Assembly: GCA_045595785.1 (NCBI GenBank)
Contig: JAZOBE010000043.1
Span: 15,810-79,809, forward strand
From: Eubacteriales bacterium
GTDB taxonomy: Bacteria; Bacillota; Clostridia; Oscillospirales; CAG-382
Length of the DNA stretch: 64,000 nt
Reading direction: 5' to 3'
Position numbers and translations under genes: made by a program. The notes under the pieces were generated by a model. That model was not told the DNA's origin and did no database searches. It worked only from the letters and a program-made list of their open reading frames with translations. Position 1 is the stretch's first letter; each line of letters opens with the position of its first letter. This document shows, in pieces, positions 9,901-28,477 of the stretch.

Positions 9901-12900
9901 TTATCACCAAGGAGGTTTACCATCCCTTTGACGGTAACCTTGATAATGAGTTCGACTTTACCGTTATCATCTCCGGCGTTACTCAGTGGGAAGCTGATAA
10001 CAAGCTGGCTCTTCCCGCAGGCGCAACCTACGTTTACGCAGGCGGCGTGGTTACCGTAAGCGGAATAAAGGTTAAGGGTGACGGCTCTGCTACCATCACC
10101 GGTATTCCCGCAGGCGCAGCATACACCGTTACCGAACTGCCTGAAACCGGCTTTGAGCTGGATACTTCCAAGACTGTAGGTGCAAACGGAACCATTTCTG
10201 CCAACACAGTTATCAATGCACAGTTTGTAAATAATTACGTACCTAACCCTCCCGTTAACGCGGATATCACCGTTAGCGGTACCAAGACTGTTCAGGCTAA
10301 TGCCCTTATTACCGAGACTTATACATTCAAGGTTCAGAAGCTTGACGAATCCACAGGCACTTACGTAGACGTAAGCGGAGCAGTTGCTTCCGTTGATATC
10401 ACCGCTACTATTGGCGGCGCAATAGAAAGCTATACCATTTCTCTTAACGAAACCTATACCAACGTGGGAACTCACTATTACCGCGTTGTTGAGGTAGGCG
10501 GAACTACCGACGGTATGACCTACGATACCACCGAAGGCCTCTTTAAGGTAACCGTTTCCGACCCCGGCGTTATCGACGGTATTCTTGAAGTAAACGTTGA
10601 AGCGATTGCTGATTCCACCGTTTCTCCCACTACCGGCGGATTTGACGTAAAGGTTGACTTTATTAACGTATATGCCGTTGACAGTACCCACGCAGATATC
10701 GTTATCAAGAAGGTACTTAACAACAATACCGGCGTAAGCATCCCTCTCAATATATTTGAGTTTGCGCTTTCCTCCGGCGGCGTAGTCATCGATACCGTTC
10801 ATACAGATGCTCTGGGTAATGCAACCATCCGTATTCCCATTGATGCAGAAGGCACCCTCGTTTACACTCTTACTGAAGTAAACGGCGGTATGCCCGGCAT
10901 GACCTACGATTCCAAGGAATACACCGTAACCATCGTTACCACTACCGTTGGCGGCAAGCTTTCGGCAGAGGTTACCGTTTCCGATACCACCGATGATATC
11001 GCATTGTTTACCAATGCATATTTTCTTACTTCCGCCATCGTTTCTATCGACGGCACCAAGATCCTTGACAACAAAGCAATAACCGACGGTCAGTTTGAAT
11101 TTATCATCAAGGCGGCAGATGAGCTTTACGCTCCCATTACTTCCGGCTGGTCCCAGACTGTTTCCAACATAGGCGGCGGCTTTACCTTCGTTCTCCCCGA
11201 ATATACCAAGGTGGGCACCTACAGATACGTTGTTAACGAGGTAATTCCTGCTGCGGCAGTAAACAATCTGCTTGATGGTATTACCTATGATACCTCTGTT
11301 TACCACGTAACAGTTGTTGTTACCGACGATGGTAACGGCAAGCTTGCTTCTGCAGTTCAGCTCACCAAGGTCGGCACTGGCGACGTTACCGATATAGTCT
11401 TTACCAACACCTATAACGTAACCGGCACCCAGACTATCACCTTTGAGGGAGATAAGATACTCATCGGCAGAGAGCTCCACGGCTCCGAGTTTACGTTTAA
11501 TATTGACGTATACAAGGACGGCGTAAAGCAGCCCTCTCTTACCACCACCAACCTTTCCACCGGCGTTATCCAGTTCCCCGAATTCACTTATACTGCTTCC
11601 GATATCGGAGTTGAATATAAGTACGTTATCAGTGAGGTTCTTCCCACCGGAGCAGTTGGCGGCAAATATCAGGGTGTTACCTATGATGATACCGTATATG
11701 AAGTTATCGTCAACGTAACCGATAACGGTGTGGGCGGCATTCAGCTTGTTGTAAGCGGAGACGATGAAAAGGCACTCCACTTTGAAAACACCTATTCCGC
11801 AGAGCAGGTTTCCGTATCTCTTTCCGGTGATAAAACTCTCAACGGCAGAGATATTGAAGACGGCGAGTTTGAATTCGTTCTCAAGAATGAAGTTGGCTCT
11901 GTTATCGAGACCGTTTCTAACGTAGCCGATAAGTTTAATTTCAGCCCCATCACTTATACCGCCGCAGGCGTATATAAGTACACTGTTTCCGAGGTTAAGG
12001 GAACCAAGGGCGGCGTAACCTATGACGATACCGTTTACACCATCACCGTAACCGTTACCGACAACGGCAAGGGTATACTTACTGCATCTACCGTTATCGA
12101 CGGCATAGGAACTCTTTCCTTTACCAATAACTACAATACTCAGAATGTAGTTATTGAAATTCCCGGCAACAAGACTCTGGTAGGCAGACCCATTGCAGAA
12201 GACGAGTTCTTGTTCGGCGTATACCACGCAACCGTTTCCGGCGGCGTCTACACTATCAACGGTGACGTAATTGTTACCACCACCAATAAGGCAGACGGCA
12301 CCTTCGTATTCGAAAACGGCGTATTCACTTCTCCCGGTACTTATCATTATGTAGTTAAGGAAATCAACGAAGGCGAGCTTGGAATTACCTACGATACCAA
12401 ACAGTTTAACATTAAGGTTGTAGTTACCGATGATCTTAACGGTAATCTGGTTGCAGATCTCACCGTTGAAAACGGTCCCATCGAGTTTAACAATACCTAC
12501 GTTCCCGTAGAAACCTCCGTTACCTTTAGCGGTACCAAGGTTCTTAACGGCAGAAGCCTTGCAGACGGCGAATTCAAGTTCGTTCTCAAGGATTCCACCG
12601 ATGCTGTTATCCAGACCGTTTCCAACGTAGGCGGCGCGTTCACATTTGATGCGCTTGTTTATAATGCAGTAGGTGGTCCTTACACCTATACCGTATCCGA
12701 AGTTAACGAGGGCAAGGGCGGTGTAACCTACGATTCCACCGTATATACCGTAACCGTTAAAGTAGTTGATGACGGCCACGGAAGCCTTGTAACCGAGGTA
12801 ACCGGCGGAACAAGCTTTGCATTCACCAATGATTACAGCGCAGATCCCGTTGATCACGCAATTTCCGGTACCAAGGTTCTTAGCGGAAAAGCTCTTGCAG

Positions 12901-15449
12901 ACGGCGATTTCAGCTTTGTACTCAAGAATTCCTCCGGCACTCCCATTGATACTGCTTCCAACGTAGGCGGCACCTTCACCTTTGGCGCTATCACCTACAA
13001 CACCGCAGGCACTTATACCTATACCGTTTCCGAGGTTAATGACGGCAAGGGCGGAATCACTTACGATACCACCGTATACACCGTAACCGTAGTTGTAACC
13101 GATAACGGCGACGGCACTCTCTCCGCAACTCAGCAGGTAGTCGGTGCAGCTGCACTTGAGTTCAACAACTCTTACAACGTAACCGTAAACGCAACCGTAG
13201 TTCTTGACGGTGTTAAGTATCTTAACGGCAGACCCCTTAATGCAGGCGAATTTGAGTTTGCTCTGAAGGACAAAAACGGCACAACCCTCCAGACCGTATC
13301 CAACCTTGCAGACGGCACCTTCATATTCGCACCTCTCAGCTTCTCCGCTGCAGGCGAATATAAGTACACCGTAACCGAGGTAAACAACGGTAAGGGCGGC
13401 GTAAGCTATGACGATACCGTTTATGATATTACCGTAACCGTAACCGACGGCGGCAGCGGCGCATACGTTGCAACAGTTGATATCAAGAATAATCCTGAAA
13501 TTATCTTTACAAACAGCTATTCTGTAGGTCCCATTTCCGTTCCTCTTACCGGCAAAAAGATTCTCGAGGGCAGAAAGCTTAACGCAAACGAATTTGAATT
13601 CGCGCTTTATACCACAGACGGCAGACTTATGCAGACTGTTACCAATAAAGCAAACGGCGAGTTTAAGTTCGAGAACATCACCTTCAGCGTAGCAGGCACT
13701 TATACCTTTATCGTAACCGAAACTCTTGGCAAAGTAAGCGGCGTAACCTATGATAATACCGCATATACCGTGAGAGTTATCGTTACCGATAACGGTGACG
13801 GAACCCTCTCTTACACCACTACCGTAAGCAGCAAGGGTGAATTGGTATTCACCAACGTATACAGCGTTAACGAAGTTACCGAAACTATCGTCGGCACCAA
13901 GGTGCTTAACGGCAGAGAACTTTTGAACGGCGAATTCAGCTTCCAGCTTAAGGATGAAAACGGCACGGTTCTCCAGACCGTTTCCAATCTTGCAGACGGA
14001 TCCTTCGCATTTGAACCCATCACTTATACTCAGCCCGGCGTATACAAGTACACTGTAAATGAGGTAAAGGGTGATGCGCCCGCTATAAAGTATGACGGAC
14101 AGAAGTTCTTCGTAACCGTTACCGTAACTGATAACGGCGCAGGACAGCTTGTTACCGATACCTCCATCACCGGCGGCAGAATCAAGTTCGTTAACACCTA
14201 TGCGGCAGAAGAAGTTTCCGTTTCCTTCAGCGGCACCAAGACTCTTGAAGGCAAGGCTCTTGCAAACGGTCAGTTCGGATTTGTTCTTACCGATGAGTTT
14301 GGCAACCTTGTTCAGACAGTTACCAACGATGAAAACGGCGTATTCAACTTTGCTCCCATTACCTATAGCGTAGCAGGGGAATACAAGTACACCGTAACCG
14401 AGGCAAATGACGGTCAGGGCGGTATTACTTATGATGAAACCGTATATACCGTTACCGTTAACGTAGTTGATAATATGGAAGGCAAGCTGGTTGCAGATGT
14501 TACCGTCAGCGGCAACGGCAGCATCGAGTTTGTAAACAGCTACACCGTGTCTCCCGTTTCCGTACCTCTTTCCGCAGTAAAGACTCTTGAGGGCAAAGAA
14601 CTTACACAGGGCGCGTTCGTATTCTACCTTAAGGATGAAAACGGCGCAGTTCTCCAGACTGTTTCCAACAGCGGCGACGGCTCTATCGCGTTCAATGATC
14701 TCACCTTTACCGCAGCAGGAACCTATGTTTACACCGTAAACGAGTTTGTAGGATCTGCAAACGGAATGACCTATGACGATACAGTTTACACCGTAACCGT
14801 AGTTGTAACCGATAACGGCGATGGCACTCTTACTGCAGTTAAGACCGTTGACGGCGGCGAAATCGTGTTTAACAACGTATACGACGCAATTGATGCAGTT
14901 GTTGACCTTGCAGGTAAGAAGGTTCTCAACGGCAGAGAGCTTTTGAACGGCGAATTCAGCTTTGCTCTCACCGATGAAAGCGGCGCAGTTGTTCAGACTG
15001 TTACCAACGATGAAAATGGAGCGTTTGCATTCGATACTCTCACTTTTGATTCCGAGGGCGTATATCAGTACACCGTAACCGAGATCAAGGGTGATGATGA
15101 AACGATCGTTTATGATACCACCGTTTACAACGTGGTTATTACCGTAATAGACGAGGACGGTACTCTTGCCGCAACCGTTTCTCTCGGCGCAGATGAAATG
15201 GTATTCACCAACGCTGTTGATAAGGGCGACGAGTCTGATCCCGACGTATCTGATCCCGACGTATCTGATCCTGACGTATCTGATCCCGACGTTTCAATAC
15301 CTGATGAGTCTGATCCCGATATTTCCGAGCCTGAGGAAACTCCCGAGCTTGGTGATAATTCTCAGTTCTTCGTTTGGGTATCTCTTCTCACCATAAGTGT
15401 TATCGGACTTGCAGTTTTGCGTATTAACAGACGTAAGATTTCCGAATAA
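6927..15449 (+). CDS. giant cell-surface adhesin: signal peptide, vWA domain, SpaA-like prealbumin-fold domains, about 14 isopeptide-type pilin repeats, acidic linker, C-terminal membrane tail
   Basis: N-terminal signal peptide (K-rich, hydrophobic, AAAA). MIDAS motif DNSSS at nt 7326 plus LLTDGETN. Two GxxxxxTGxPxGAxYTVxE modules. Repeats carry GTKxLxGR ... YxYTVxEV ... GVTYD ... FxNxY, which is the Lys/Glu/Asn pattern of Spy0128/FctA-type isopeptide domains. The tail reads SDPDV x4 ... hydrophobic stretch ... RINRRK. Confidence 0.85.
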   Translation: MKIKSVTKKILSLLLVICLILPCIPVISIPFKAAAAPGTGTVVVDPSTADSYTNMLGTAIDGNRYSGRVWFDKSVYAYGSEAQLPLHSDFIGLPLDTIKIDSNFLVVGSAIGSTTSVITTTSTAAYLDVVIILDNSSSMKNTSNGTTRFVKVRDAANKLIQSITSNKNNRLAIVAYSSDSQEILPLDFYNEKANVLTLSETGNYYNRNYQFTASATPVGSSTAIGGKYTGSANGTNVQSGVNQGMKILANAENTSGRIPVVILLTDGETNHAVSNDWYNAASSNITNNNFTYHKQVAVSTLLNAAYMKYLASTNYVTAPVVYGIGVDLGAGSNANVVMDPANTVKSTANGLAKETYDLLEQWKNSSSTVTSNYGGTTWRFPQLPSNYPGTKQDVIDNINYVDKYYNIGSEELSGTFDEILVEINEKAFVPLVDKVVQGEIEVDTPLTYVDFIGDYMEVKEFKAVTLFGKVYSISKSLEAPVITDTVNTDGTVTRKAVTTYVVESGTATNPTLGVSFNVSDAIKITVTETYLAKNVNGVYEKIGVGKQEVRATIPSIVLPLIYDKVSNDQGDISYESNRGEVVPLRLYYTVDIADEVIDSNGDVITDLISSDYLANNTNTNGSVNFYPGQYGVMNTIETINGVTGLFKGDAHAAATPALDNRYYYYQNNYPVYISATNKNGSAITWDKDEYGVLYYQGNGIDKTLNDNYKTEYLLYSDVSSLSDTDLVYTMVAFYRPTSGGKGEAVGYLTYNDWQYIKDSLAYYDNVNKVYINGYSGGAYETSETEGHHVSAGIVDSYITAKGLKKSDIICVLGIGAWRTSRLHNMEVHKTTNESGTAEFTVVPTHNEDALHDGSLVSWLGNNGKLTLAPQQGISITKTVTEAVAGAETEFVFTVTVSGTDFTPKFIDQNGNSFNSVPVVKDTSLNKTTITLTLKAGETAYVTGLPTGASYTVAEALSNYYSASYTNEAGTVKANEMVYVSVENAPKAYGDLVITKEVYHPFDGNLDNEFDFTVIISGVTQWEADNKLALPAGATYVYAGGVVTVSGIKVKGDGSATITGIPAGAAYTVTELPETGFELDTSKTVGANGTISANTVINAQFVNNYVPNPPVNADITVSGTKTVQANALITETYTFKVQKLDESTGTYVDVSGAVASVDITATIGGAIESYTISLNETYTNVGTHYYRVVEVGGTTDGMTYDTTEGLFKVTVSDPGVIDGILEVNVEAIADSTVSPTTGGFDVKVDFINVYAVDSTHADIVIKKVLNNNTGVSIPLNIFEFALSSGGVVIDTVHTDALGNATIRIPIDAEGTLVYTLTEVNGGMPGMTYDSKEYTVTIVTTTVGGKLSAEVTVSDTTDDIALFTNAYFLTSAIVSIDGTKILDNKAITDGQFEFIIKAADELYAPITSGWSQTVSNIGGGFTFVLPEYTKVGTYRYVVNEVIPAAAVNNLLDGITYDTSVYHVTVVVTDDGNGKLASAVQLTKVGTGDVTDIVFTNTYNVTGTQTITFEGDKILIGRELHGSEFTFNIDVYKDGVKQPSLTTTNLSTGVIQFPEFTYTASDIGVEYKYVISEVLPTGAVGGKYQGVTYDDTVYEVIVNVTDNGVGGIQLVVSGDDEKALHFENTYSAEQVSVSLSGDKTLNGRDIEDGEFEFVLKNEVGSVIETVSNVADKFNFSPITYTAAGVYKYTVSEVKGTKGGVTYDDTVYTITVTVTDNGKGILTASTVIDGIGTLSFTNNYNTQNVVIEIPGNKTLVGRPIAEDEFLFGVYHATVSGGVYTINGDVIVTTTNKADGTFVFENGVFTSPGTYHYVVKEINEGELGITYDTKQFNIKVVVTDDLNGNLVADLTVENGPIEFNNTYVPVETSVTFSGTKVLNGRSLADGEFKFVLKDSTDAVIQTVSNVGGAFTFDALVYNAVGGPYTYTVSEVNEGKGGVTYDSTVYTVTVKVVDDGHGSLVTEVTGGTSFAFTNDYSADPVDHAISGTKVLSGKALADGDFSFVLKNSSGTPIDTASNVGGTFTFGAITYNTAGTYTYTVSEVNDGKGGITYDTTVYTVTVVVTDNGDGTLSATQQVVGAAALEFNNSYNVTVNATVVLDGVKYLNGRPLNAGEFEFALKDKNGTTLQTVSNLADGTFIFAPLSFSAAGEYKYTVTEVNNGKGGVSYDDTVYDITVTVTDGGSGAYVATVDIKNNPEIIFTNSYSVGPISVPLTGKKILEGRKLNANEFEFALYTTDGRLMQTVTNKANGEFKFENITFSVAGTYTFIVTETLGKVSGVTYDNTAYTVRVIVTDNGDGTLSYTTTVSSKGELVFTNVYSVNEVTETIVGTKVLNGRELLNGEFSFQLKDENGTVLQTVSNLADGSFAFEPITYTQPGVYKYTVNEVKGDAPAIKYDGQKFFVTVTVTDNGAGQLVTDTSITGGRIKFVNTYAAEEVSVSFSGTKTLEGKALANGQFGFVLTDEFGNLVQTVTNDENGVFNFAPITYSVAGEYKYTVTEANDGQGGITYDETVYTVTVNVVDNMEGKLVADVTVSGNGSIEFVNSYTVSPVSVPLSAVKTLEGKELTQGAFVFYLKDENGAVLQTVSNSGDGSIAFNDLTFTAAGTYVYTVNEFVGSANGMTYDDTVYTVTVVVTDNGDGTLTAVKTVDGGEIVFNNVYDAIDAVVDLAGKKVLNGRELLNGEFSFALTDESGAVVQTVTNDENGAFAFDTLTFDSEGVYQYTVTEIKGDDETIVYDTTVYNVVITVIDEDGTLAATVSLGADEMVFTNAVDKGDESDPDVSDPDVSDPDVSDPDVSIPDESDPDISEPEETPELGDNSQFFVWVSLLTISVIGLAVLRINRRKISE
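10255..15215 (+). repeat. about 14 tandem coding repeats (roughly 95-110 aa each) inside the adhesin gene
   Basis: I counted 15 successive F-x-N-x-Y/V domain-boundary motifs in the translation. The repeats are diverged at the DNA level but clearly homologous at the protein level. Confidence 0.8.
15233..15337 (+). repeat. 15-bp tandem repeat encoding (S-D-P-D-V)n
   Basis: tctgatcc(c/t)gacgt(a/t) occurs four times in perfect register (15233-15292), followed by three degenerate units. Confidence 0.9.
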
Positions 15450-18168: not shown

Positions 18169-18204
18169 AAAACGGGCACTTCAAGTACGAAGTGCCCGTT
18201 TTTT
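18169..18204. terminator. bidirectional rho-independent terminator
   Basis: aaaacgggcacttc ... gaagtgcccgtttttt lies between convergent genes (stops at 18163 on + and 18213 on -). Confidence 0.8.
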
Positions 18205-18212
18205 CGGTGTTG

Positions 18213-18539
18213 TCAGGTAGTAATACTTTCGGTAATTATCTGCCGCCGCAGTTCATTGGCTTTTTTGGTGTATAACGCATAATCCTTTTCTGCCGCCTCC
18301 AATTCACTTTCGCTGCATTTTCCACGGCTGAACCTTGCTAACGTAAGCACCAATGCCGCTATCCTTTCTTCGCCCTCCATGCGCAGAAGCTCTTGTCGGT
18401 TCCTTTCTTCCTTTCGTCGTTCTGCGTCCTTTCTCGCCTTCTCCAATGCTCTTCTAAGCAAAAAACACACGAAGACAGAGACGAATCCGCCTGCAGACAA
18501 AAACGCTGCAGCGGCTTCTACGAGGCTTTCGAAAACCAT
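18213..18539 (-). CDS. small membrane-anchored coiled-coil protein (phage cluster, function unknown)
   Basis: 108 aa with an N-terminal hydrophobic segment followed by charged helix-prone sequence. It lies just downstream of the holin. Confidence 0.5.
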   Translation of the reverse strand: MVFESLVEAAAAFLSAGGFVSVFVCFLLRRALEKARKDAERRKEERNRQELLRMEGEERIAALVLTLARFSRGKCSESELEAAEKDYALYTKKANELRRQIITESITT

Positions 18540-18578
18540 CAGATTTCGTAAATCAGACGGGCGATAGCGTCAAAAAGC

Positions 18579-18914
18579 TCATCCCACCGAAGTGTCAGTG
18601 TCAGTACCAGCGTTTTCAGTATTCTCATCGTCCTTACCCTTAATCTGCTTGTAAATATTATTGGTATAAACGCTGGCGGCGGCGCACAGCATACCTTGTG
18701 TAATGCTTGCAAATATCATATTCAGTACGCTCTGCGCCCCGTTCACCGTGTTGTTGGCAAATATCCAGAGTCCTGCCAGAGTAATACCCACTGCTCCAAG
18801 AATAAGAGGTATCTTCCAGTCGCTTATGCGGCTGTTTTTAATTGCAATACCTAATATGTAAAGTATGGGTATCAGAACGTAAAGCTCACCGGATATATAT
18901 TCTGTGAATTCCAA
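18579..18914 (-). CDS. phage holin-family protein
   Basis: 111 aa with three hydrophobic segments and a charged acidic C-terminus. It sits at the distal end of the phage cluster and resembles LL-H/phage_holin_5-type holins as I remember them. Confidence 0.65.
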   Translation of the reverse strand: MEFTEYISGELYVLIPILYILGIAIKNSRISDWKIPLILGAVGITLAGLWIFANNTVNGAQSVLNMIFASITQGMLCAAASVYTNNIYKQIKGKDDENTENAGTDTDTSVG

Positions 18915-20116
18915 TTTCTTTCTCCTCTCAGATTATTTGTGTTTATAAGATTACCGCCCAGATTAACGGCGTTTGTTTTGTTTTTACGCGCATCCACGTT
19001 GCGGAGATAGTCTCTTACCTCGTAATCGGAAAGATCCAGCAATCCGCACGCGGTATAAAACTCGTTTATATCCGCACATCTGGTATAAATATAGTCAAGT
19101 CTTGCTAATTTAGCGCGCTTCTCCGCGTAGTTTTTACGGTCATCGTAGTCGTTGAACAGCATCTGCGCCAGCTTCTCAGCCATATTGTACTCAATTTCGT
19201 ATTCGTCTGCCGAATTGCTTACAATAGTGGCAATTCCGATAGCGCTTTCGTCCATAGGCGTGTATCCCAAGGCATCAAGCACAAACAGCACCTTGTCCAT
19301 ATATTCATCGGTAAAGGTGTATCGTTGCTTTAGTCCGTTAAGATATTTGCTTATATTAATGTTTGCCTCGGCGGTGGTTACCGTGTCAGAGGTGCCGTAT
19401 CTTTTTGCAATGGCGTTTGCAAGCTGATACGCCGTCATAGACGGTTCAAAACTTGTGCTTTCCTCTGTTTTTGTGTCCTCCTTGTCTTCTTCGGCATCCT
19501 TGTCGGAAGTGTTTCCCGTTGAAGGCTTTTTGTCTGTGCTTCCGGATGATGAGCCGGAATTATTATTTCCGCCGCCGTGGCTTCCGCCGTTGACTGCAGG
19601 AGGAGGCGTTTCGGTTACTTTATCCTCCTCGGGCGTTGGGTCTCCCACCACTACGTCGCCGTATTTTATCTTGTCCTCCGTCACCTTAATAGCTGTGTCG
19701 GTAAGCTCCTTTTGGTTTTCAAGCAGCTTTTCAGCATAGTCAAGGTCAAGGGAAGCCATATAACTGTTTTTGTCATTTTCCAGCTTTGCAAGATTTTCCG
19801 CGTGGCCGCTTGCAAGTGAGGATAGCGTGTTTTTGTATATCATATCCGAATTAAGCTTAGCCTGCGCGCTTTCACCGGAAAACGCAAGTCCTCGGGACGC
19901 AAGAAATTCTCCCGTGTTCTTTTCATCCAGCTTTTGCTGTGCGGAAGCCGCGTTTTTGCTTTTTTCGTAATCGCTGTTAAGCTTTTCCACCGAGTTACTG
20001 TATGACTTTTCATAGTTTTCTTTTGCCTTGTTATACAAGTCTGTAAGTGCCTTTGTGTTGTCAGAATACTTTTCAAGCTCTTTTCTGGTCTGTTCAATAA
20101 CAGAATCGTATGTCAT
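18872..20116 (-). CDS. phage-cluster protein, coiled-coil N-terminus plus G/S/N-rich low-complexity linker (function unknown)
   Basis: 414 aa. A 4-nt overlap couples it to the upstream gene, and its 3' end overlaps the holin start by 43 nt. Confidence 0.55.
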   Translation of the reverse strand: MTYDSVIEQTRKELEKYSDNTKALTDLYNKAKENYEKSYSNSVEKLNSDYEKSKNAASAQQKLDEKNTGEFLASRGLAFSGESAQAKLNSDMIYKNTLSSLASGHAENLAKLENDKNSYMASLDLDYAEKLLENQKELTDTAIKVTEDKIKYGDVVVGDPTPEEDKVTETPPPAVNGGSHGGGNNNSGSSSGSTDKKPSTGNTSDKDAEEDKEDTKTEESTSFEPSMTAYQLANAIAKRYGTSDTVTTAEANINISKYLNGLKQRYTFTDEYMDKVLFVLDALGYTPMDESAIGIATIVSNSADEYEIEYNMAEKLAQMLFNDYDDRKNYAEKRAKLARLDYIYTRCADINEFYTACGLLDLSDYEVRDYLRNVDARKNKTNAVNLGGNLINTNNLRGERNWNSQNIYPVSFTF

Positions 20117-21840
20117 CTTTCCACCTCCTTACTGTTGGTCTTAAAGGTTACCGATCTTATATGGGCGCCTCTGCTTCCGTGTGAGGAGGACAGGGTTACT
20201 GCCGCCCCGTAAGCGCGTTTTATCTCGGTTCTGAATTTATAGCTTTTTGTAATATCGCTTCCGTTCTTGTCAACGGAAACTGTCTGTGAATTCATAAGCT
20301 GTCCTGCCTCCGTTGGTGCGGCGGTTACAGTAATATCCGTTCCTCCGCTATTGTCCGCTTCCACAATTACCGCCGTAAGATCAAACCTTTTTCCGTTTGC
20401 TCCGAACTTTCCCGCAGGTGTGCACCAATATGCGTTTATTGCACCCTTTTGGTCGTTTTTCAGGTCATCGGAAAAATAGTATAATTCTCCGCTTTCGTTC
20501 AGCCAATACAACTTTCCGGGTATTTCGCAAAACTGAACAGCGTTGATTGCGTCATATTTATACCAGACATCAGTTGCGTAATTATATATAAACAACCCGT
20601 AAGGGGTAGAAAAATATAATTCGTTCTCGGTCTGTCTGTCGTAAATACAGCATCTGTCCGTATACCCGTTTTTAATTATACGCTTTACCGTTTCACCAAT
20701 AGGCTTTGAAAAACACTCTGCGTTTCTTTCGTCCTGCACCGATGTCGATACCCATCGGTTCAAGCCGTCATCGGATAATGTTACGGGGGTGTTGTCTATC
20801 ACCGCGTTGCTTCTCTTAAGAAGATTTCCCTTTTCGAAATTAAGATTATAGACGGGGAATGAGGGATAGTAGTTACCCAAAGCGTCAGTTCTCAGCTCAC
20901 AGTAAGAATAATATGCTCTGTCCTCAGTGAAAATGAGCTGTCTGTCATAATGCTGTACCATATCGGTTATGTTGGAATGACCTATTATCGTGTAGTTGGT
21001 TTCGGGAAAGTATTCTGCGCTGGGAAGTCCGTTTGCAAGCTCGGAATAAAAACGATAATTGGGATAATTGGGGTTTCCGTATAAAAACACCCTTGTATCC
21101 GTGTTACCGCCGAAATTCATGCTGCCCGTACAGTCAACTATTAGCCTTTCTTTGTCGGCACGTCCCTTGGACCAGCATATCTCAACGTTGTTTGTTCCTG
21201 CAGGTGGAATTTCCACCGAAGAAAAGCTTAACGTTCCCGCTTCTTCGTTTACATCCCAGTTTTCCCGTTCTTCTCCGTTTACCTTTACCCATTCAATACC
21301 ATCAATATTCTGTTCTGCCAGAGTAAAGGTTCTGGAGTTGCCGTCTGCCGAAAACTGCTGTCTTCGTTTTGCCGTAAGCATATTCAGCTTTTCATACAGC
21401 GTTCCGCTTCCGTCAGGCAGAGTAGATACCGCAATAAGGGGAACATACGGCTCAAGTAAATCAAAAACTCCGTTTTCATACTTGCAAATACCAACGTCAC
21501 ACAGAAAATATACGGCGTTACCAAAGCTGAAAATATGGTGGCAGCCGCCTGCGGTAATGCTTATGGTGTCAAACTGTTGGGTGCCGAAGTTATATTTATA
21601 TATGCGCTGTCCGGCACAGACGATAAAAGTAAGCACACCGCTTATATAGCCGCGCCACATTCGGTAAACACTTCCGTTGAATCCGCAGTTTGACATTCTG
21701 CTTCCCGGACGTTTTTTAAGCGAACCGTTTTCGCACACCTTGAAATTACACATATCCGGTGAGAGAGCAGGGGAGTCCGAAAAAACGTTTCTTTCGTCCA
21801 GCCCGCCAAATCTGTTGATTTTCAAATATCTGTTGGACAT
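20113..21840 (-). CDS. large phage structural protein (possible tail/nozzle-type beta-rich protein)
   Basis: 575 aa and beta-strand-rich. It is located after the head genes. There is no motif-level assignment. Confidence 0.45.
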   Translation of the reverse strand: MSNRYLKINRFGGLDERNVFSDSPALSPDMCNFKVCENGSLKKRPGSRMSNCGFNGSVYRMWRGYISGVLTFIVCAGQRIYKYNFGTQQFDTISITAGGCHHIFSFGNAVYFLCDVGICKYENGVFDLLEPYVPLIAVSTLPDGSGTLYEKLNMLTAKRRQQFSADGNSRTFTLAEQNIDGIEWVKVNGEERENWDVNEEAGTLSFSSVEIPPAGTNNVEICWSKGRADKERLIVDCTGSMNFGGNTDTRVFLYGNPNYPNYRFYSELANGLPSAEYFPETNYTIIGHSNITDMVQHYDRQLIFTEDRAYYSYCELRTDALGNYYPSFPVYNLNFEKGNLLKRSNAVIDNTPVTLSDDGLNRWVSTSVQDERNAECFSKPIGETVKRIIKNGYTDRCCIYDRQTENELYFSTPYGLFIYNYATDVWYKYDAINAVQFCEIPGKLYWLNESGELYYFSDDLKNDQKGAINAYWCTPAGKFGANGKRFDLTAVIVEADNSGGTDITVTAAPTEAGQLMNSQTVSVDKNGSDITKSYKFRTEIKRAYGAAVTLSSSHGSRGAHIRSVTFKTNSKEVER

Positions 21841-22220
21841 CAGTTCACCTCGGTAATAGAATGAAGACGTGCTCGGGAATATCTTTGAGCGCTTCTGTAT
21901 GCGTAACGGTACTTTTCCTCAAGCTTTGCGGAAAGAGCGGGGTCTTCGTCTGCCGAAAGGTTTGCCGCAACCCCGTAGGGAATAACCGATAACAGCAAAC
22001 CTTCATCATAATCCACTGTATCGTTAAGACTTGTTATAACGGGAATATGTTTTTCTCTGTTGCAAAGTCTGCAGTTAAGAGGTGTACATTCGGCAAGACA
22101 GATGTTTATAATATTTATTGCTCTTGCCTCCATATCCGCACAGCTTGCAGGCAGTACCCCGTTGCTTCCACGGATATTCATCAGGTCCAGAGCGATATTC
22201 AATATGCTTTTTCCTGTCAT
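21840..22220 (-). CDS. small phage structural protein (possible head-tail adaptor by position)
   Basis: 126 aa, lying between the capsid gene and the large structural gene. The call is by position only. Confidence 0.4.
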   Translation of the reverse strand: MTGKSILNIALDLMNIRGSNGVLPASCADMEARAINIINICLAECTPLNCRLCNREKHIPVITSLNDTVDYDEGLLLSVIPYGVAANLSADEDPALSAKLEEKYRYAYRSAQRYSRARLHSITEVN

Positions 22221-22285
22221 TATAATACCTCGCTTAAAATGCGTTGCCGTATCGATAATGATACGGCAACTAGTTTATTCTGTTT

Positions 22286-23116
22286 TTATGCTATTGCGTT
22301 ACCGCCGTCGGTTACCGCAACGCTTACCAGCTCTTCGGGCTTGATAACCTTTGCACCGTATACGATTCTGCCGCGTACTGCGGAATCAAAGGAATTTTCA
22401 AGTCTGTCGATATACTGAACGTCGAGAAGCTGTTCAGCGTATGCAATTGCGTTGTAGGAGCCTGCCATCATATGAACGGAGCCGTCGTCCTCGGTTGCAA
22501 GCTGGTTGGATACAAAGATATCGCATCCCAATTCATCGGTAAATCCGATAGTGCCGCTTCCGTTAACTCCGTTGTTGATCTGGAATTTGATTCCCGCCAG
22601 CATAAGCTTGGTCTTAACGAAGGGAGGAACAACGATCCAGGTTCTGCCGTCCTGAACGTTAGCCTTTTCCAGAGTCTCCTTTACTTCGCCGATAAGCTGA
22701 AGCACGTTTGCGGGAGTTACGGTAGTGGCATCCATAGTGGTGCCTGCCTTTCTGTGCAGGCTGAATACGTAGGTATCCACTTCCTTTTTAAGGTTGTAGG
22801 ATGCGCGCTTTGCCTGAGAATCCTTAAGACCGAGAGAGCTTCTCAACGCCTCAAGGTCAGCTACCTTAAAGGAAAACGCCTTGTCCTGGTCAATGCTGAG
22901 AATAACGGCAGAGTCGTCGATCTCCTCGTAATTAACGGTACCCTCGTAATCATATACGGTGGGATCGTTAAGACCTACGAAGGTAACGCTGTCACCGCGG
23001 TTCTTGATATCACCTACGAAAGAGGTGTTGCAGATCTTGTTTGCCAGAAGATTATCTTCGTTGGTACGGAGTATCTCGGCGGAAATTACTTTTTCAATGC
23101 TGTTGTAGTTAGACAT
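22286..23116 (-). CDS. putative major capsid protein
   Basis: 276 aa, immediately after the scaffold-like gene and preceded by an SD. The codon usage looks like that of a highly expressed gene. The order portal-scaffold-capsid supports the call. Confidence 0.6.
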   Translation of the reverse strand: MSNYNSIEKVISAEILRTNEDNLLANKICNTSFVGDIKNRGDSVTFVGLNDPTVYDYEGTVNYEEIDDSAVILSIDQDKAFSFKVADLEALRSSLGLKDSQAKRASYNLKKEVDTYVFSLHRKAGTTMDATTVTPANVLQLIGEVKETLEKANVQDGRTWIVVPPFVKTKLMLAGIKFQINNGVNGSGTIGFTDELGCDIFVSNQLATEDDGSVHMMAGSYNAIAYAEQLLDVQYIDRLENSFDSAVRGRIVYGAKVIKPEELVSVAVTDGGNAIA

Positions 23117-23137
23117 GTTTTTTACTCTCCTGTTTTG

Positions 23138-23575
23138 TTAGATTTTCCAGTTCTTAATGGAACGGATAATGTTTTTGAAGTTTTTCTTTACGTTTTCATC
23201 GGACATACTCTCCACCTGCTCGGGAGTAAAGGATTGCTCCGCGTCCGCTTCTTTTCCTGCAGGTGCGCTTCTGCGCATGTTTTCGGTGTTTACCTCTTCT
23301 GCCTTCTTGTTTTTTGCGTCGGCACCGCAGAGATATACTGCGTATGCGGCGGTAAGGGAAACGCCATCTGCCACCTTTTCCCAAACCTCATCGGGAATAT
23401 CAGCAGGAAGCACATCGGGGAACAGCTTTTTGAATTCCTCAACGTCCTTGCTTATTTTGTCCTGCTGCTTTTTGCTTTTTCTTTCGGTCTTAACTGCGGA
23501 AAGCAATTCCTCGGCGGTAGTTCCGTCTTCCTTTGCCATTTCCGCAATTATTTCAAGAATATCCTGTTCTTTCAT
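23138..23575 (-). CDS. putative scaffolding protein
   Basis: 145 aa, highly charged and helical (E/K-rich). An ATGA overlap couples it to the portal gene. Confidence 0.55.
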   Translation of the reverse strand: MKEQDILEIIAEMAKEDGTTAEELLSAVKTERKSKKQQDKISKDVEEFKKLFPDVLPADIPDEVWEKVADGVSLTAAYAVYLCGADAKNKKAEEVNTENMRRSAPAGKEADAEQSFTPEQVESMSDENVKKNFKNIIRSIKNWKI

Positions 23576-25110
23576 TTTACCTCCGTTTGAATTTGAATAC
23601 TGTCCATAAGCTCCTTTTTCATGGGAATAATGTTGTCGGGCAGTCTTTCAAGATATTGTTTAATATTAATAAGTCCCATCTTAAGCAGATTATCAAGGGT
23701 ATTGACGGCGGTTATCTCAGACCACCATCCGCTTTCGCCTACCTCGATACTGCACTCAAACAGCGCTTCTCTGTAGTCGGAAAAGGGGAACGATGTAAAC
23801 TCGTTCATTCCGCCGGAAATAGGCAGTAAGCGGTTGTCATCGTAGTAAGCGAACATAAAGTTCAGCCATATAAGACCAATATCCTCTACAAAGCCGTAAA
23901 GCGCACGCTTTACGTTTTCAAGAGGCTGTGCAGATGCCCTCTGTAATGCAAGTATTGCAGAGGTATTGTTTGCTTTTTCGCTTCCCAAGGCTGAATCTGT
24001 CGCACCCAGAAAATCCTTGGTGTGTGCTATCGCCATATTAATGACGTCCAGCATACCGCTTTGCATACTTCCGCCGTTAAGGACTGCAGCAACGCTGTCA
24101 ACGGGACCGTTTACCGCTACTGCCTCGCCCACCTTGTTGGACCAATCCTCAATTACCGTGGAGTCGTATACTACCTTGGAAAAGGCGGTGTCCATCATAT
24201 GCTTCATAACCATAGCGTAGCCCTTGTTTATGAATATCTGGTTGTCCACCAGTCCTGTGCCGGCGGCTTTTCCGTGCCAGGAATTCTTTACTCTCGTCCA
24301 GCTGAAATACGCCAGCGGATATAACATAAGACCGGTGTCGATATCTTCTGTAATGGCAGTATCTCGCACACTCTTTCTGTACATTATATTTCCGTTTTCA
24401 TTTTTCCACAGCTTTACAAGAGTAACGCATTTTGTGTTTTCCAATTCCTTGTTCGACATATCACCTGCAAAGCAATCGGTTTCGTTGTCGGAAACAATAA
24501 GACTTATTTTTTCCTTGGGAATTCCGTTTCTTTCCGCCTGCTTTTTAACTTCGGACACTGTTTCTCTTCCGGAAATCAGTATATAAGGCTGTGCTTGCAC
24601 GTTTGTAATATTGGGATTTCCGAAAAACACGTTTGTGTTGTCGATAAGCACCGTGCGAAAATCACCGGTATAGCTTTGTCCCGTCTTGATGGTAGGATCC
24701 CAATAGGTGTAGGCAAATGCATCGCCGGTAATGGCGGCATCATACAAAGCGTCGGAAATAAGCGAATCCATTTTCAGCTTTTCCCAACGGTGCTCCGCCG
24801 TGCGCTTTAACGTCTCATCCAGCTTATGCTGCTCCTCCGACGAAAGCATCGGGGTGGGGGATGAATATCGGTAATTCAATTTTACTGATGACGATGCGAT
24901 GTTGGAAACATAGTAATCGATTATACGCTTGTAAAAATTGAATACCGGTGTGGGCAGACCTGTAGAGCTTACACCCGTCCATTGATCTCCGCGGTAAAAC
25001 CTTTCGTTGGTATCCACCTCGTCATACAGACCAATAGAACGGTTGTACTCCTTGCCTTTTTCATAGAGTGCCCACTCCTCCGTAAAGGCTCTTTTGTTTC
25101 TCAAATTCAT
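23572..25110 (-). CDS. putative portal protein
   Basis: 512 aa, directly downstream of the large terminase gene. Size and position are typical of a portal. Confidence 0.65.
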   Translation of the reverse strand: MNLRNKRAFTEEWALYEKGKEYNRSIGLYDEVDTNERFYRGDQWTGVSSTGLPTPVFNFYKRIIDYYVSNIASSSVKLNYRYSSPTPMLSSEEQHKLDETLKRTAEHRWEKLKMDSLISDALYDAAITGDAFAYTYWDPTIKTGQSYTGDFRTVLIDNTNVFFGNPNITNVQAQPYILISGRETVSEVKKQAERNGIPKEKISLIVSDNETDCFAGDMSNKELENTKCVTLVKLWKNENGNIMYRKSVRDTAITEDIDTGLMLYPLAYFSWTRVKNSWHGKAAGTGLVDNQIFINKGYAMVMKHMMDTAFSKVVYDSTVIEDWSNKVGEAVAVNGPVDSVAAVLNGGSMQSGMLDVINMAIAHTKDFLGATDSALGSEKANNTSAILALQRASAQPLENVKRALYGFVEDIGLIWLNFMFAYYDDNRLLPISGGMNEFTSFPFSDYREALFECSIEVGESGWWSEITAVNTLDNLLKMGLINIKQYLERLPDNIIPMKKELMDSIQIQTEVK

Positions 25111-25117
25111 TTTTCTC

Positions 25118-26470
25118 CTAATCGTATTCTATTACGCCTGCATAATTATCACTTTGACGCGGGATATCAAAGGAATATATGCTTCGGCGGAATTTCGGTT
25201 TTTTGGGCATTGAATTCATAGGCTCTCTGGACATCAGCCCATACCGCAACGCTTCGGGTGCATGAGTAATATCGTGGGGATGTGAGGATGCATCCTCGCG
25301 CACCTTTTCATCAAATCGAAGAAGCGGCAGACACCGTATAAGCTCCTTGCATTGGGCAGATATTTTCAGCCTTGCGCCCTTTTCTCCGTTCCACAGATAT
25401 TCTCTTACCACACGCCAGCCTGTAATACGGCTGTTGTCGGCTTTTATAAGGCCCTTAAGTCCGTTTGATACAAGTATCTCAAATCCGCTTTTACCGCTGT
25501 CCTGACGCCTGTTCCACAGGTCGGGGGATGCCACGGTGTATCGTATTTTTTCATCCTTCGGCGTCAAAGCAATAATCTTTTTCGCCGCCTCCGAAAGTAT
25601 AAGCCCCGATTGATTGAATTCACGGTATACGGTAATATTACCTTTTCCGTCTGCTGCACACCACAAGCAGGAGGTCATATCAAGACCGTAATCCAACGCA
25701 CGGAACAGTACCGCGTTTTTGGGTATCTCGGGTTCGCGTATAACGTGGATTCTGGCATCAAACTCAGGGAAAAACGCGCCCTCAAATGCGTTCCAATCAC
25801 CGTAAAGCATTGCCCGCTTTCTCGCCTCGGGTAATGCCGCCAGCGCCGCAACGTAGTCGGGATCGTTTTCGGTAAGATACTTGTTATCAAATACCAAGCT
25901 TTGAATAAATTTGTAGTCATCGGGGTTTTCTCCATCACGGTACAGCTTGTCTATAAACAGACGCTTTACCCAGTCGTGACCCACCCCGCCGGGGTTACAG
26001 GTAAAATACATTCTCGGTCTGAACCGAGTTTTCATATTACCCGATATTCTGTTACATTCGGTAAGACATTGGAATTGAAAATAGGTGAAGTGAGTGGCTT
26101 CCTCCATACCTATTACCTCGTATGCCTGACCCTGATACTGAAGCACGTCCTGCTCTCCGTCACAGTACCCCAATTTTATTCGAGACCCGTTGGGGAACAC
26201 AAACTCCTTTTTGGTCTCACTGTAGATGGCAGCATCGGCAAGCAGCTTTTGCAGAGGAACTATATGATTATCCCGCAGTTCCCCAAGCGTTCTGCGCAAA
26301 AGCAGTATCTGTATGCCGGGGTGCTTAAGCGCCAGCAACACGAACTTGGTACGCATCGCCCAACTTTTTCCTCCGCCTCTGGCACCGCCGTAGGCAACGT
26401 ATCTGTGTTGTGAAACGAAAAACTCCTCCTGCTTTTTATTGGGGCAAAGCTTTACCGTCAGTCGCCCCAT
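25118..26470 (-). CDS. phage terminase large subunit
   Basis: Walker A-like GGARGGGKS, Walker B-like VIGMEEAT, and C-terminal nuclease-domain acidic motifs (ALDYGLD, HDITHAPEALRYG). Confidence 0.85.
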   Translation of the reverse strand: MGRLTVKLCPNKKQEEFFVSQHRYVAYGGARGGGKSWAMRTKFVLLALKHPGIQILLLRRTLGELRDNHIVPLQKLLADAAIYSETKKEFVFPNGSRIKLGYCDGEQDVLQYQGQAYEVIGMEEATHFTYFQFQCLTECNRISGNMKTRFRPRMYFTCNPGGVGHDWVKRLFIDKLYRDGENPDDYKFIQSLVFDNKYLTENDPDYVAALAALPEARKRAMLYGDWNAFEGAFFPEFDARIHVIREPEIPKNAVLFRALDYGLDMTSCLWCAADGKGNITVYREFNQSGLILSEAAKKIIALTPKDEKIRYTVASPDLWNRRQDSGKSGFEILVSNGLKGLIKADNSRITGWRVVREYLWNGEKGARLKISAQCKELIRCLPLLRFDEKVREDASSHPHDITHAPEALRYGLMSREPMNSMPKKPKFRRSIYSFDIPRQSDNYAGVIEYD

Positions 26471-26868
26471 TTTCCCGCTTCTCCTTTAAGTATTACCGTG
26501 CTCTTTTCCGGATTGTCGCAGTTTTCCGGCTTGTCCTTGTATGAATGGTTGTTTTTCATGTCAAATGCAAAAACAGCCGCCGGGATCTTCCCCTTGAAAG
26601 CAAGCTGTTTTTTAATAAAGGCTATTCTGTTCATTGCCTGCGTAACTGCAAGCGAGTATTTTTTGTCTGACATCATTTCAAAAATGTCGGTTCTGGTGCA
26701 GTGGAGATAATCAGCCAACGCCTCTACATCCGCCACCTCATCTGTGTGAGCAGGCAGATGTTCGCAAAAATAACTGTTTATCTTTTCCGCACACTCTTCA
26801 GGGCATGAAAAAACCGCCTTGTAGGGCGGTTTGCGATTGTTCGGTTTTGGTTGACTCTGTAAAGTCAT
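26458..26868 (-). CDS. putative terminase small subunit
   Basis: Start taken at MTLQSQ (SD AAGGAGA). It overlaps TerL. The C-terminal pattern AAVFAFDMKNNHSYKDK resembles the Terminase_2 tail as I remember it. Confidence 0.55.
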   Translation of the reverse strand: MTLQSQPKPNNRKPPYKAVFSCPEECAEKINSYFCEHLPAHTDEVADVEALADYLHCTRTDIFEMMSDKKYSLAVTQAMNRIAFIKKQLAFKGKIPAAVFAFDMKNNHSYKDKPENCDNPEKSTVILKGEAGKWGD

Positions 26869-27293
26869 TTTTTCTCCTTGCTGGTGAAAATGTAGATCTT
26901 GCTTGCGACATAATTTATTATAAGGCACAGCACCGATGATATTACGGTAGCTATCATCGAAGAGAAGGGCAGGAAGGAGAGCAGCGTGGGAAGAAACAGC
27001 ATGAACACCATATCCAAAAGCATTACGGCTATTCGTGTAACAAAAAACAGTATGCTTTCCTTGGTTACCGCAGATGCGGTCTTGTTCTTGCTGTCAAACA
27101 CCCATATTCGGTTGGGAATATATGCAAATGCAATTCCCGCAATATTTTTAATTATTGTAGACACGGTATCGTTCAACTTTAACGGATAAAATGCTATCCA
27201 GAAGGCTATAAAGGATACAACCGTGGTCAACGCGCCTACTATAAGATATTTGCCCTTTTCGGTGCAAAACAGCATGTTTATAAGTTTCTTCAT
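26865..27293 (-). CDS. GtrA-family small membrane protein
   Basis: Start taken at MKKLINM (SD GGAGA). There are four hydrophobic segments, and NRIWVF is typical of GtrA-like proteins. The stop overlaps the TerS start (ATGA). Confidence 0.55.
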   Translation of the reverse strand: MKKLINMLFCTEKGKYLIVGALTTVVSFIAFWIAFYPLKLNDTVSTIIKNIAGIAFAYIPNRIWVFDSKNKTASAVTKESILFFVTRIAVMLLDMVFMLFLPTLLSFLPFSSMIATVISSVLCLIINYVASKIYIFTSKEKK

Positions 27294-27445
27294 TTGCTTC
27301 TCCGCCCATTGACGGTGCAGGTGAGGTCTCTGTCTCACGTAAACCATTATAGCACCGTTCTTATCAAATTTCATCTCAACTTTGTTGCAATTTTTTATTG
27401 CATACTGCACAAAAACAAACTATGCCGTTTGTCTATATTGCTGTT

Positions 27446-28477
27446 TTAAGCCAGCAGGTCGCCTATAACGGCATTGGATATCCAGAATCCGTCCTCGGTA
27501 AGCCTTAGTATACCGTTATCATATTCCGCATATCCGAGCGATATGTATTTTTTTACCTTTTCTGCCTGCTCGGGACTTACCGAAACACCCTGCGCCATAC
27601 GCAGACCCAGCATTATACGCTCGGTCTCTATTTCCTCAGGGGTTATCTGTTCCATATATCCCGTGTAGTTAAAGCGGTATCCTGCCGCGTAACTGTGGCT
27701 TCCGCTTCCGCAGCCGATATATTCTCCGCCGCGCCAATAATTACAGTTGTGCCGTGATTCTTTTCCGGGCAGACAGTAATTGGATATCTCGTAGTGTATA
27801 TATCCCGCTTCCTTTAACATACGGCAAATAAGCTTGTACATGGCATATTCCGTGTTTTCATCGGGCTTTTGTACGTTTCTGGCATAGAAAAGCGTGCCGT
27901 GCTCTATGGAGAGTGGGTAAAGAGATATGTGATCGGGACGTATTTCCAGCATTTTTCTCACGTCCTCTTCCACCATTTGTATAGTCTGCCCGGGGAGTGC
28001 AAACATCAGGTCGCAGGAAATATTGTCAAACCCCGCTTTTCTTCCGTCACTTACGCATTTTACCGCATCGTCGGCATCGTGTATACGCCCCAATGTCTTA
28101 AGCATATCGTTATTAAGCGATTGCACTCCTATAGAAAGACGGTTAAATCCTGCCTCCCGCATACTGCACAAAAACTCATAATTGACGGTTTTGGGGTTTA
28201 CTTCACAGGTTACCTCTGCGCCCGACGGTATCTCAAACATTTCGTATGCATACCGTATCAGCCCCGTGAGACGGCTTATGCCGATTACGGGAGGTGTTCC
28301 TCCGCCGAAATATACCGTTTCTGCCTTGGGACGTAGTCTGGCGGCATACATCATATCGATTTTTATACGCTCGTACTCAAAATTAAGTGCGTCGTCATTA
28401 AATCTGTCACGGGATTCAAAGGCGCAGTAAGGACATTTATGCAGGCAAAAGGGAATATGAACGTATATACTACTCAT
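27446..28477 (-). CDS. hemW: radical SAM heme chaperone HemW / oxygen-independent coproporphyrinogen oxidase-like protein
   Basis: Start at [19 protein letters not shown] is the radical-SAM CxxxCxxC motif. The gene order lepA-hemW is conserved. Confidence 0.85.

Follow-up and report, generated by a model that had tools for sequence, protein, structure and literature searches.

A compact cluster of phage-like genes lies among cellular genes in a 64,000-nucleotide stretch of the genome of an Eubacteriales bacterium (GenBank assembly GCA_045595785.1, contig JAZOBE010000043.1, positions 15,810 to 79,809), hereafter called the window, to which the coordinates below refer. The cluster forms one compact minus-strand transcription unit of ~9 kb (18169-27377). 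From 5' to 3', it consists of a promoter, a GtrA-like gene, genes for the small (TerS) and large (TerL) terminase subunits, portal, scaffold-like protein and capsid, the genes p126, p575 and p414, a holin gene, p108 and a terminator. The original prediction for this DNA had placed eleven minus-strand open reading frames (ORFs) here and judged their frames intact, and ORF and family searches agree: the positions stand and all frames are open. Junctions from the GtrA-like gene to p108 measure -4 (ATGA), -13, +7, -4, +21, +65, -1, -4, -43 and +39 nt, and a Shine-Dalgarno sequence is present for every gene except p108.

The first gene of the operon in the window's clade encodes a GtrA-like small membrane protein (26865-27293, minus strand like all other features of the cluster; PF04138, E 5e-19). 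It can be counted as an operon member in this clade because the conserved promoter lies 5' of it and its stop codon overlaps the start of TerS. A GtrA-like gene is also found directly 5' of TerS in 13 other loci of the family described below (family 1). TerS (26458-26868), a P22 gp3-type protein of 136 aa from the ATG at 26868 with AAGGAGA as its Shine-Dalgarno sequence, matches phrog_606 and PF16677 (E 2.5e-6, just below Pfam's cutoff). Its conserved core reads GEVADIESLADYLGxTRxEL...IAKIKKQLAF...FDLKNNHGY, and a profile search against PDB sequences gave no significant match. TerL (25118-26470, 450 aa) matches PF04466, PF03237 and phrog_979 (E 7e-51), carries the Walker A motif GGARGGGKS and is 60-93% identical within the family.

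The head genes follow directly. The portal (23572-25110, 512 aa) is of P22 type (PF16510, P22_portal, E 2e-11; phrog_156, E 8e-28). The next product, of 145 aa (23138-23575), is conserved in the family and matches phrog_14606, a group of unassigned function (E 3e-10), while Pfam, NCBIfam and PDB searches gave no match; its position suggests a scaffold. The major capsid protein (22286-23116, 276 aa) belongs to an HK97 or P22-coat-like family (PF25209; phrog_267, E 2e-36) and is 62-96% identical within family 1.

Downstream of the capsid gene, the original prediction had seen three ORFs of unassigned role and no tail genes. Two of these, p126 and p414, still lack an informative match, but p575 (20113-21840) can now be assigned to the tail. 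By sequence, p575 gives only a weak PHROG match. However, when an AlphaFold2 model built from 26 homologues (predicted local distance difference test score 89) was compared with the PDB using Foldseek, the top 30 matches were all podovirus tail complexes, including those of Pa223, T7 and P22 gp10 (8eap_D, E 5e-14). On the strength of this model, p575 is therefore a podovirus tail nozzle, or hub, with the P22 gp10 / T7 gp12 fold. It is also ~29% identical to the virion protein gp15 of phage Page. The podovirus-like character proposed earlier for the gene content is thus borne out by the nozzle fold.

The other two proteins can be placed less firmly. p126 (21840-22220) is conserved in the family and gave no match to Pfam or PHROGs families and no significant PDB match in a profile search; judged by its position, it would be the head-to-tail adaptor. 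p414 (18872-20116) is modelled as a long helical-hairpin coiled coil (residues 20-151), a disordered linker (159-221) and an all-alpha C-terminal domain (229-376), and contains an invariant RGLxxSGESAQ motif. It has 286 representatives in a 50%-identity library (E up to 1e-3). Foldseek comparison of its model with the PDB returned generic coiled coils only, none of them significant, and matches in BFVD were weak (E at least 3.5e-3) and all to uncharacterised phage proteins. p414 may act in the tail as a plug or needle, or as an ejection protein. The operon closes with two genes likely to act in lysis. The first encodes a holin of the Hol44 family (18579-18914; PF16079, E 4e-24; phrog_1129), which has a TTG start with GAGGAGA 5' of it. 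The second, p108 (18213-18539), encodes an N-terminal transmembrane helix followed by a charged helix, without a family match in Pfam, PHROGs or NCBIfam. Kept in nearly all loci reaching that far, at lengths of 104-129 aa, p108 is probably a lysis accessory protein.

Transcription of the cluster appears to be controlled separately from that of its neighbours. The lepA and hemW genes lie upstream on the same strand, as originally described, and hemW is followed by a weak terminator-like hairpin (27411-27432; stem 27432-27427 / 27420-27415, ACAAAC / GTTTGT, then a T-run), with a comparable hairpin in the closest loci. Between this hairpin and the GtrA-like gene lies a dedicated promoter (27337-27377; 10/12 with TG in a consensus scan), made up of GAGATGAAA (27377-27369, the -35 position), N14, TGCTATAAT (27354-27346, a TG-extended -10), N6 and CGT (27339-27337). 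The motif GATGA-N17-23-TAnnAT-N4-8-CGT recurs at a fixed distance 5' of TerL in 38 of 50 family loci, against a background of 0.036 per kb. This distance is 410-565 nt (mostly 430-500) where TerS is the first gene and 890-1020 nt (mostly 890-930) where a GtrA-like gene lies between. As this promoter is conserved between hemW and the cluster, the co-transcription with lepA-hemW implied by the original prediction is unlikely. The hemW-GtrA spacer also holds one copy of an exact 17-nt direct repeat, GCATACTGCACAAAAAC (27400-27416), whose other copy lies inside hemW (28159-28175); the cluster is not bracketed by it.

Upstream of the promoter motif, GnGA units form an array of 11-bp-phased direct repeats, the last of which overlaps the -35 position. 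Among 25 non-redundant loci, GnGA is found at -2, -13, -24, -35 and -46 relative to the motif in 72, 40, 40, 28 and 28%, respectively, and at other offsets in at most 8%, mostly zero. Some loci, such as L049 and L017, have five or six tandem units. Set against published consensus sequences, the -10 appears sigma-A-like and the -35 position seems to resemble an activator site, which would disfavour a sporulation or extracytoplasmic function (ECF) sigma promoter. The arrangement is consistent with a sigma-A-type promoter whose activity would depend on an activator bound to direct repeats, in the manner of response regulators, and the phasing of the GnGA units suggests that this activator is shared and acts in trans.

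Two further hairpins mark the operon. In the capsid-p126 spacer, an 11-bp stem followed by GCATTTT (22243-22270, minus strand) is probably a leaky attenuator; in phage Page, a terminator is annotated at the corresponding position. At the 3' end, the strong intrinsic terminator that had been noted earlier closes the operon (18169-18202, minus strand; 15-bp stem, then a T-run). An Rfam scan of the leader and the cluster identified no riboswitch and no other known RNA.

The surroundings of the cluster are those of a bacterial chromosome. LepA and HemW are confirmed upstream (HemW: TIGR00539, 257 bits), while the downstream 460-aa membrane protein, previously labelled GltS-like, has no Pfam or NCBIfam family match that would sustain this name. 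The other large ORFs of the window are cellular: an ABC ATPase, an enolase-superfamily protein, a short-chain dehydrogenase/reductase, a Na/Pi transporter, ClpX, ClpP, trigger factor, a sortase and a dockerin/DUF4855 protein. GC content (0.43-0.48 in the cluster versus 0.31-0.41 in a low-GC island elsewhere in the window) and relative synonymous codon usage (correlation of the cluster with the host 0.78, with the island 0.23) agree that the cluster is host-like in composition and unlike the island, as the first reading had it.

Genes for mobility were looked for in and around the cluster. No replication, repressor or integrase gene is recognised in or beside it, and library scans, which covered window ORFs of at least 150 aa, upheld the earlier statement that integrase, repressor, replication and endolysin genes are missing. 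No direct repeats bracket the cluster, the window has no att repeats, and the nearest recombinase is a serine recombinase in the low-GC island (60197-61684), with none closer. In a census covering 126 ORFs that flank 30 diverse loci, SecD/F, DUF4855, GtrA, AsnA, glutamine synthetase and similar families dominate, and none of the 25 commonest families is an integrase, integration, replication or phage family. A locus without replication, integration and immunity genes can persist only by vertical descent.

The cluster recurs in many gut bacteria. Nozzle homologues number at least 188, nearly all of the full-length ones being 560-600 aa long, with identities between 30% and 89%; many of the homologues lie on long contigs. 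A nozzle search of 185,579 genomes, one per species of the Genome Taxonomy Database (GTDB), provided the loci studied here, the best 80 of 89. Family 1 comprises ~60 of these loci in distinct GTDB species, all with the collinear order TerS-TerL-portal-scaffold-capsid-p126-nozzle-p414-holin-p108. By BLAST, 38 of them are complete and span 8.5-10.5 kb; most of the incomplete ones end at contig ends, while a few long loci have no detectable lysis genes (L022, L025, L064, L072) or no p414 match (L054). ORF lengths are nearly constant, with TerL at 448-457 aa and the capsid at 272-280 aa in most loci. The hosts are uncultured, in records titled Oscillospiraceae, Ruminococcus sp., Eubacteriales or Clostridia, and come from the guts of ruminants, horse, chicken, rabbit and human. 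Metagenomes or metagenome-assembled genomes are likewise the source of all of the 120 best capsid homologues, which are family-1 proteins; none is from a named cultured organism.

Several observations indicate that family 1 has been inherited with its host chromosome. At least 1.5 kb of upstream sequence is available for 44 loci, and 25 of these have lepA-hemW directly upstream on the same strand and contig, so the proposed check of whether the cluster is conserved at this site in relatives is answered positively for these 25; the remaining clades share cellular neighbours of their own. Pairwise distances of cluster proteins follow those of LepA closely (Pearson r 0.86-0.97, Mantel p at most 0.0005), with slopes on LepA distance of 0.96 for the capsid, 1.07 for TerL and 2.0 for HemW. 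Between loci whose LepA proteins are ~79% and HemW proteins ~40% identical, the capsids are still ~72% identical. The capsid thus evolves at about the slow pace of LepA, and HemW evolves faster than either. In a search for relatives with an empty site, the window's HemW matched only distant HemW proteins (31-41%) in Joint Genome Institute (JGI) metagenomes.

Selection was assessed from the ratio of non-synonymous to synonymous substitution rates (dN/dS, Nei-Gojobori) in eight independent close pairs with unsaturated dS (0.06-0.9), plus the window and its closest relative, L005. For all ten phage-derived genes, dN/dS is mostly 0.02-0.2, with a few values up to 0.36, compared with 0.01-0.15 for flanking genes between the window and its relatives. 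This second check put forward with the original prediction therefore indicates purifying selection throughout the phage-derived genes. TerS, TerL and the portal are among the most conserved genes of the cluster.

The comparison with L005 also shows a break in nucleotide identity, from 86-99% between lepA and the capsid gene (29.2-22.3 kb) to 71-85% from p126 on. A swap of the tail module was considered as the source of the high p126-p108 dS in this pair and was rejected, since the lower identity extends into the downstream host genes. This continuation means that a recombination tract would instead cover lepA to the capsid gene, and the pattern points to a tract that measures 7 kb or more and stops at the hairpin between the capsid gene and p126 (window ~22300).

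These data bear directly on the proposal that the cluster is a decaying prophage remnant without current function. In favour of a remnant, the cluster lacks ~30 kb relative to a typical podovirus genome, and the replication, lysogeny, fibre and endolysin genes are among the missing parts. However, decay is contradicted by frames that are intact in the window and in 38 complete loci, by near-constant ORF lengths, by the low dN/dS values, by a capsid conserved as strongly as LepA and by a conserved promoter. This explanation, one of three options that had been offered at the outset, is now hardly credible.

A second of these options was a capsid-forming satellite or other mobile element that had lost its integrase and for which a helper phage would supply receptor binding, lysin and induction. 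The small size, the cluster's own packaging and head genes and the missing fibre and lysin genes all fit such an element, and one IMG/VR record (L084) is a 9150-bp unit spanning exactly TerS to p108. This record, however, was probably cut out by the IMG/VR pipeline in the manner of a provirus and is unlikely to be a free genome. The lack of integrase, excisionase, replication and repressor genes, of att repeats and of integration or replication families in the flank census also speaks against a mobile element, as does a stable, host-like chromosomal position that recurs over deep host divergence, with genes that co-diverge with LepA. A satellite is accordingly quite improbable.

Comparison with free phages bears on the ancestry of the cluster and on its distance from them. 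Bacillus phage Page (Pagevirus) and gut podophage contigs of 35-42 kb in IMG/VR share the same order of TerS, TerL, portal, scaffold, capsid and tail genes, and their nozzle is homologous to p575 (28-36%). With a gp3-type TerS, a P22-type portal, an HK97-fold coat and a gp10/gp12-type nozzle in order, the cluster descends from a P22-like or Page-like podovirus virion module. These phages, however, have ~39-40 kb genomes with replication, recombination, regulation, tail spike or fibre and endolysin genes, which the cluster lacks. The structural module is itself reduced, as the distance between capsid and nozzle genes is 1-1.7 kb in family 1 compared with ~5 kb in the closest phage contigs.

Sequence identity is correspondingly low. 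It is at most ~30% for capsid and nozzle in cultured phages, and the nearest phage relatives overall reach up to 47% for the capsid and up to 36% for the nozzle. The closest IMG/VR contigs, L096 and L097 (39 kb), show 54-59% for TerL, 43-45% for the portal, 44-47% for the capsid and 33% for the nozzle. Two unannotated 'Bacteriophage sp.' scaffolds of ~10 kb from human faeces in Mexico (L001, MT836592.1; L002, MT836833.1) have the order TerS-TerL-portal-scaffold-capsid-small ORFs-nozzle, with 38-51% (TerL), 29% (capsid) and 24-25% (nozzle) identity to the window; they are probably fragments of true podophages.

Taken together, synteny, co-divergence, purifying selection and the distance from phages fit an element retained by its host and contradict both a decaying remnant and a mobile satellite. 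The cluster is probably a domesticated, chromosomally fixed podovirus remnant that the host keeps as a particle factory resembling a gene transfer agent (GTA), or viriform. This corresponds to the third option of the original prediction, a host-retained GTA-like module, which gains support from collinearity in ~60 species, lepA-hemW synteny in 25 of 44 loci, co-divergence with LepA and dN/dS. Of the features by which GTAs and viriforms are recognised (Kogay et al. 2022, PMC9662315), the cluster shows chromosomal caudoviricete packaging and virion genes, no genes for replication, integration or control of lysogeny, and vertical descent with purifying selection. A function in DNA transfer is suggested by anatomy, by evolution and by the precedent of the GTA of Faecalibacterium prausnitzii (FpGTA).

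If the cluster does act in this way, the activator-dependent sigma-A-type promoter at 27377-27337 would fire in a subpopulation of cells. The operon would then make TerS and TerL, the portal, the scaffold and a small HK97-fold capsid, as the gene identities indicate. A stubby tail would be built from p126 as a putative adaptor, p575 as the nozzle, for which the modelled fold speaks, and p414 as a possible plug or ejection protein. The P22-type terminase would fill the small heads with pieces of cellular DNA by headful packaging. Finally, the holin and p108 would release the particles, together with a lysin encoded elsewhere or a host autolysin.

Several points weigh against this interpretation. 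All family members are metagenome-assembled genomes, and particle formation, random packaging and transfer are all deduced, the family being known here from its genes alone. The cluster and the scanned window ORFs (at least 150 aa) contain no endolysin, tail-fibre or receptor-binding gene. The co-divergence test covers only loci with a physically linked lepA, and clade structure inflates such correlations. The window's own GnGA array is degenerate, with GCAAC replacing GnGA and the proximal unit alone intact. TerS keeps a conserved helix-turn-helix-like segment; packaging could therefore be sequence-specific, and non-specific packaging is not claimed. In addition, if head capacity is ~9 kb, the operon itself could fit one particle.

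Retention and purifying selection do not show what the selection is for, and a domesticated particle-forming element could have been kept for something other than gene transfer. It might act as a killer or defective particle like PBSX, in programmed lysis with release of extracellular DNA, or in the delivery of protein cargo. PBSX packages host DNA without delivering it, and the authors of the FpGTA study leave gene transfer versus another selected function undecided (PMC12946183); the cluster also has no receptor-binding gene. On the other hand, TerS, TerL and the portal are among the most conserved genes, which argues that DNA packaging is itself under selection. There is no contractile sheath or other killing device, and a nozzle together with a plug- or ejection-like protein is the DNA delivery apparatus of a podovirus. 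A non-transfer function is considered less likely but a serious alternative, and a GTA-like particle factory remains the preferred explanation.

Some clades of family 1 carry additional genes. In most of them (L011, L014-L057), the capsid-p126 interval contains a beta-rich ORF of 114-132 aa with the C-terminus ...KKRYVTNH (e.g. L017:9186-9536), which weakly matches a PHROG 'tail protein' (E 0.005). This ORF is missing in the window's clade (window, L004-L010, L012) and in L064/L072, where just a hairpin of 47-146 nt is left. In L018, L019, L023, L026 and L027, a cell-wall hydrolase of ~800-855 aa with glucosaminidase, SH3, Big_2 and dockerin domains is encoded divergently, adjoining the cluster promoter (e.g. 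L018:1699-4266, minus strand), and is a candidate lysin partner in this clade. DUF4855 proteins with F5/8 type C and dockerin or Ig-like domains lie near the cluster in several species (among them window 31343-33673, L004 and L039) and account for 6 of the 126 ORFs in the flank census; their recurrence is probably conserved host synteny rather than a functional link.

A more distant group of loci, family 2 (L061, L062, L066-L071, L073-L079 and L083), matches at ~6.6-12.5 kb in each locus. Its genes encode a portal, a scaffold, a capsid of 278 aa, p127, a nozzle of 567 aa and a p244-270 protein. The capsid is ~30%, the portal 47% and the nozzle 33% identical to those of the window. Family 2 has no adjacent TerS or TerL; in L061, a TerL (59% identical to the window's) lies ~6 kb downstream among cellular genes, and a YitT-type membrane gene adjoins the portal. 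The promoter motif of family 1 is absent from family 2, which may be a multi-locus GTA-like lineage.

Elsewhere in the window, the low-GC island (GC 0.31-0.41) extends from a tRNA-Leu(CAG) gene (43019-43105) to the large serine recombinase (60197-61684). Its cargo includes helix-turn-helix (HTH) regulators, methyltransferases, GNAT acetyltransferases and VWA and metallophosphatase proteins, and it is a mobile island in its own right with no relation to the phage-like cluster. A 2840-aa ORF (6927-15449, plus strand) follows the gene for a 399-aa HTH/TPR/LuxR-type regulator (5193-6392), and long antisense ORFs within it (e.g. 9138-12857) look like composition artefacts.

GTAs with a long vertical history are well documented mainly in Alphaproteobacteria. 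In gut Firmicutes, FpGTA is to our knowledge the only one tied to a locus as of 2026. No description of family 1 was found in the literature. We tentatively suggest that family 1 is an ancient, independently domesticated, podovirus-derived GTA family, driven by a conserved promoter that would depend on an activator. Its fixation beside lepA-hemW would date back to the common ancestor of many uncultured gut Oscillospirales forming a broad clade. If this is true, then together with family 2 and FpGTA it would mean that short-tailed GTAs arose repeatedly in gut Clostridia.

Family 1 provides a concrete candidate gene set in dozens of ruminant, bird, rabbit and human gut species, with a clear evolutionary signature of domestication. 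Its promoter motif can be used to seek unlinked partner genes, such as fibres and a lysin, as well as the regulator. Should the element be active, genes could move by this route among gut bacteria that are abundant, degrade fibre and are not yet culturable. Family 1 could also be the locus behind some of the GTA-like packaging in Ruminococcaceae/Oscillospiraceae that lack FpGTA, although this is a lead rather than a result. GTA-like packaging for which the locus was not identified has been described in Gemmiger, CAG-115, Ruminococcus callidus, Onthomonas and Christensenellaceae (PMC12946183), and family 1 is a candidate for similar cases among the hosts that carry it.

Among known systems, FpGTA is the closest. 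It is encoded by an operon of 10 ORFs in ~10 kb, and its particles of ~40 nm each hold 8.4-8.9 kb of host DNA; a second operon ~125 kb away encodes fibres, a receptor-binding protein, a holin and an endolysin (PMC12946183, Nat Commun 2026). Like the cluster, FpGTA belongs to gut Clostridia, is podovirus-like, occupies a ~10-kb operon and has no integrase described. Its gene order of TerS, TerL, portal, small protein, capsid, small proteins, nozzle and coiled-coil ('TolA'-annotated) protein matches that of the window. The FpGTA nozzle was assigned to PDB entry 8eap (P22 gp10), which the p575 model also matches, and the operon described here, at 8.7-9.2 kb, can be set against the FpGTA head content of 8.4-8.9 kb.

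Nevertheless, the two differ in detail. The FpGTA capsid is annotated as N4-gp56 family, whereas the window capsid has no NCBIfam match (E up to 0.01) and instead matches PF25209 and phrog_267. Between portal and capsid, FpGTA has a Prp-like protein (RCH50850.1), while the 145-aa protein of the window lacks a match in Pfam and NCBIfam. The holin gene belongs to the main operon here and to the second operon in FpGTA. In the draft assembly of F. prausnitzii strain ATCC 27766, LepA (RCH50650) is ~200 accession numbers from operon I (RCH50844-52), which suggests that the two are not adjacent. No Faecalibacterium record is found among the best 80 of 89 nozzle relatives from the species genomes searched, and ten distant p414 relatives looked up by name were only unnamed metagenome proteins, with no Faecalibacterium. 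Set apart by annotations and family models rather than by direct sequence comparison, family 1 appears to be a different lineage from FpGTA.

Other phage-derived systems can also be compared with the cluster. Capsid-forming phage-inducible chromosomal islands (cf-PICIs) are likewise small (~10-15 kb) and encode their own terminase, portal, scaffold and capsid. However, they carry an integrase together with regulatory and replication modules and rely on helper tails, whereas the cluster has no such modules, has its own nozzle and is not mobile. PBSX of Bacillus subtilis is similarly a chromosomal, defective, phage-like element of a Gram-positive host, and the window TerL weakly matches the PBSX terminase model (70 bits, cutoff 105). 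Unlike the cluster, PBSX is myovirus-like, with a contractile tail, ~28 kb of genes, its own repressor and a killing particle. RcGTA-type GTAs of Alphaproteobacteria are siphovirus-like, with a tape measure and a long tail, in contrast to the podovirus-like cluster; their protein families are unrelated, and the hosts here are Gram-positive anaerobes. With RcGTA, the cluster shares its mode of evolution, namely chromosome-fixed, phage-derived head and packaging genes that are inherited vertically over deep host divergence, evolve slowly and are accompanied by no replication or integration genes (PMC9662315). Host control, as described for RcGTA (PMC9662315), would be a further likeness if the putative activator of the cluster is indeed a regulator of the host.

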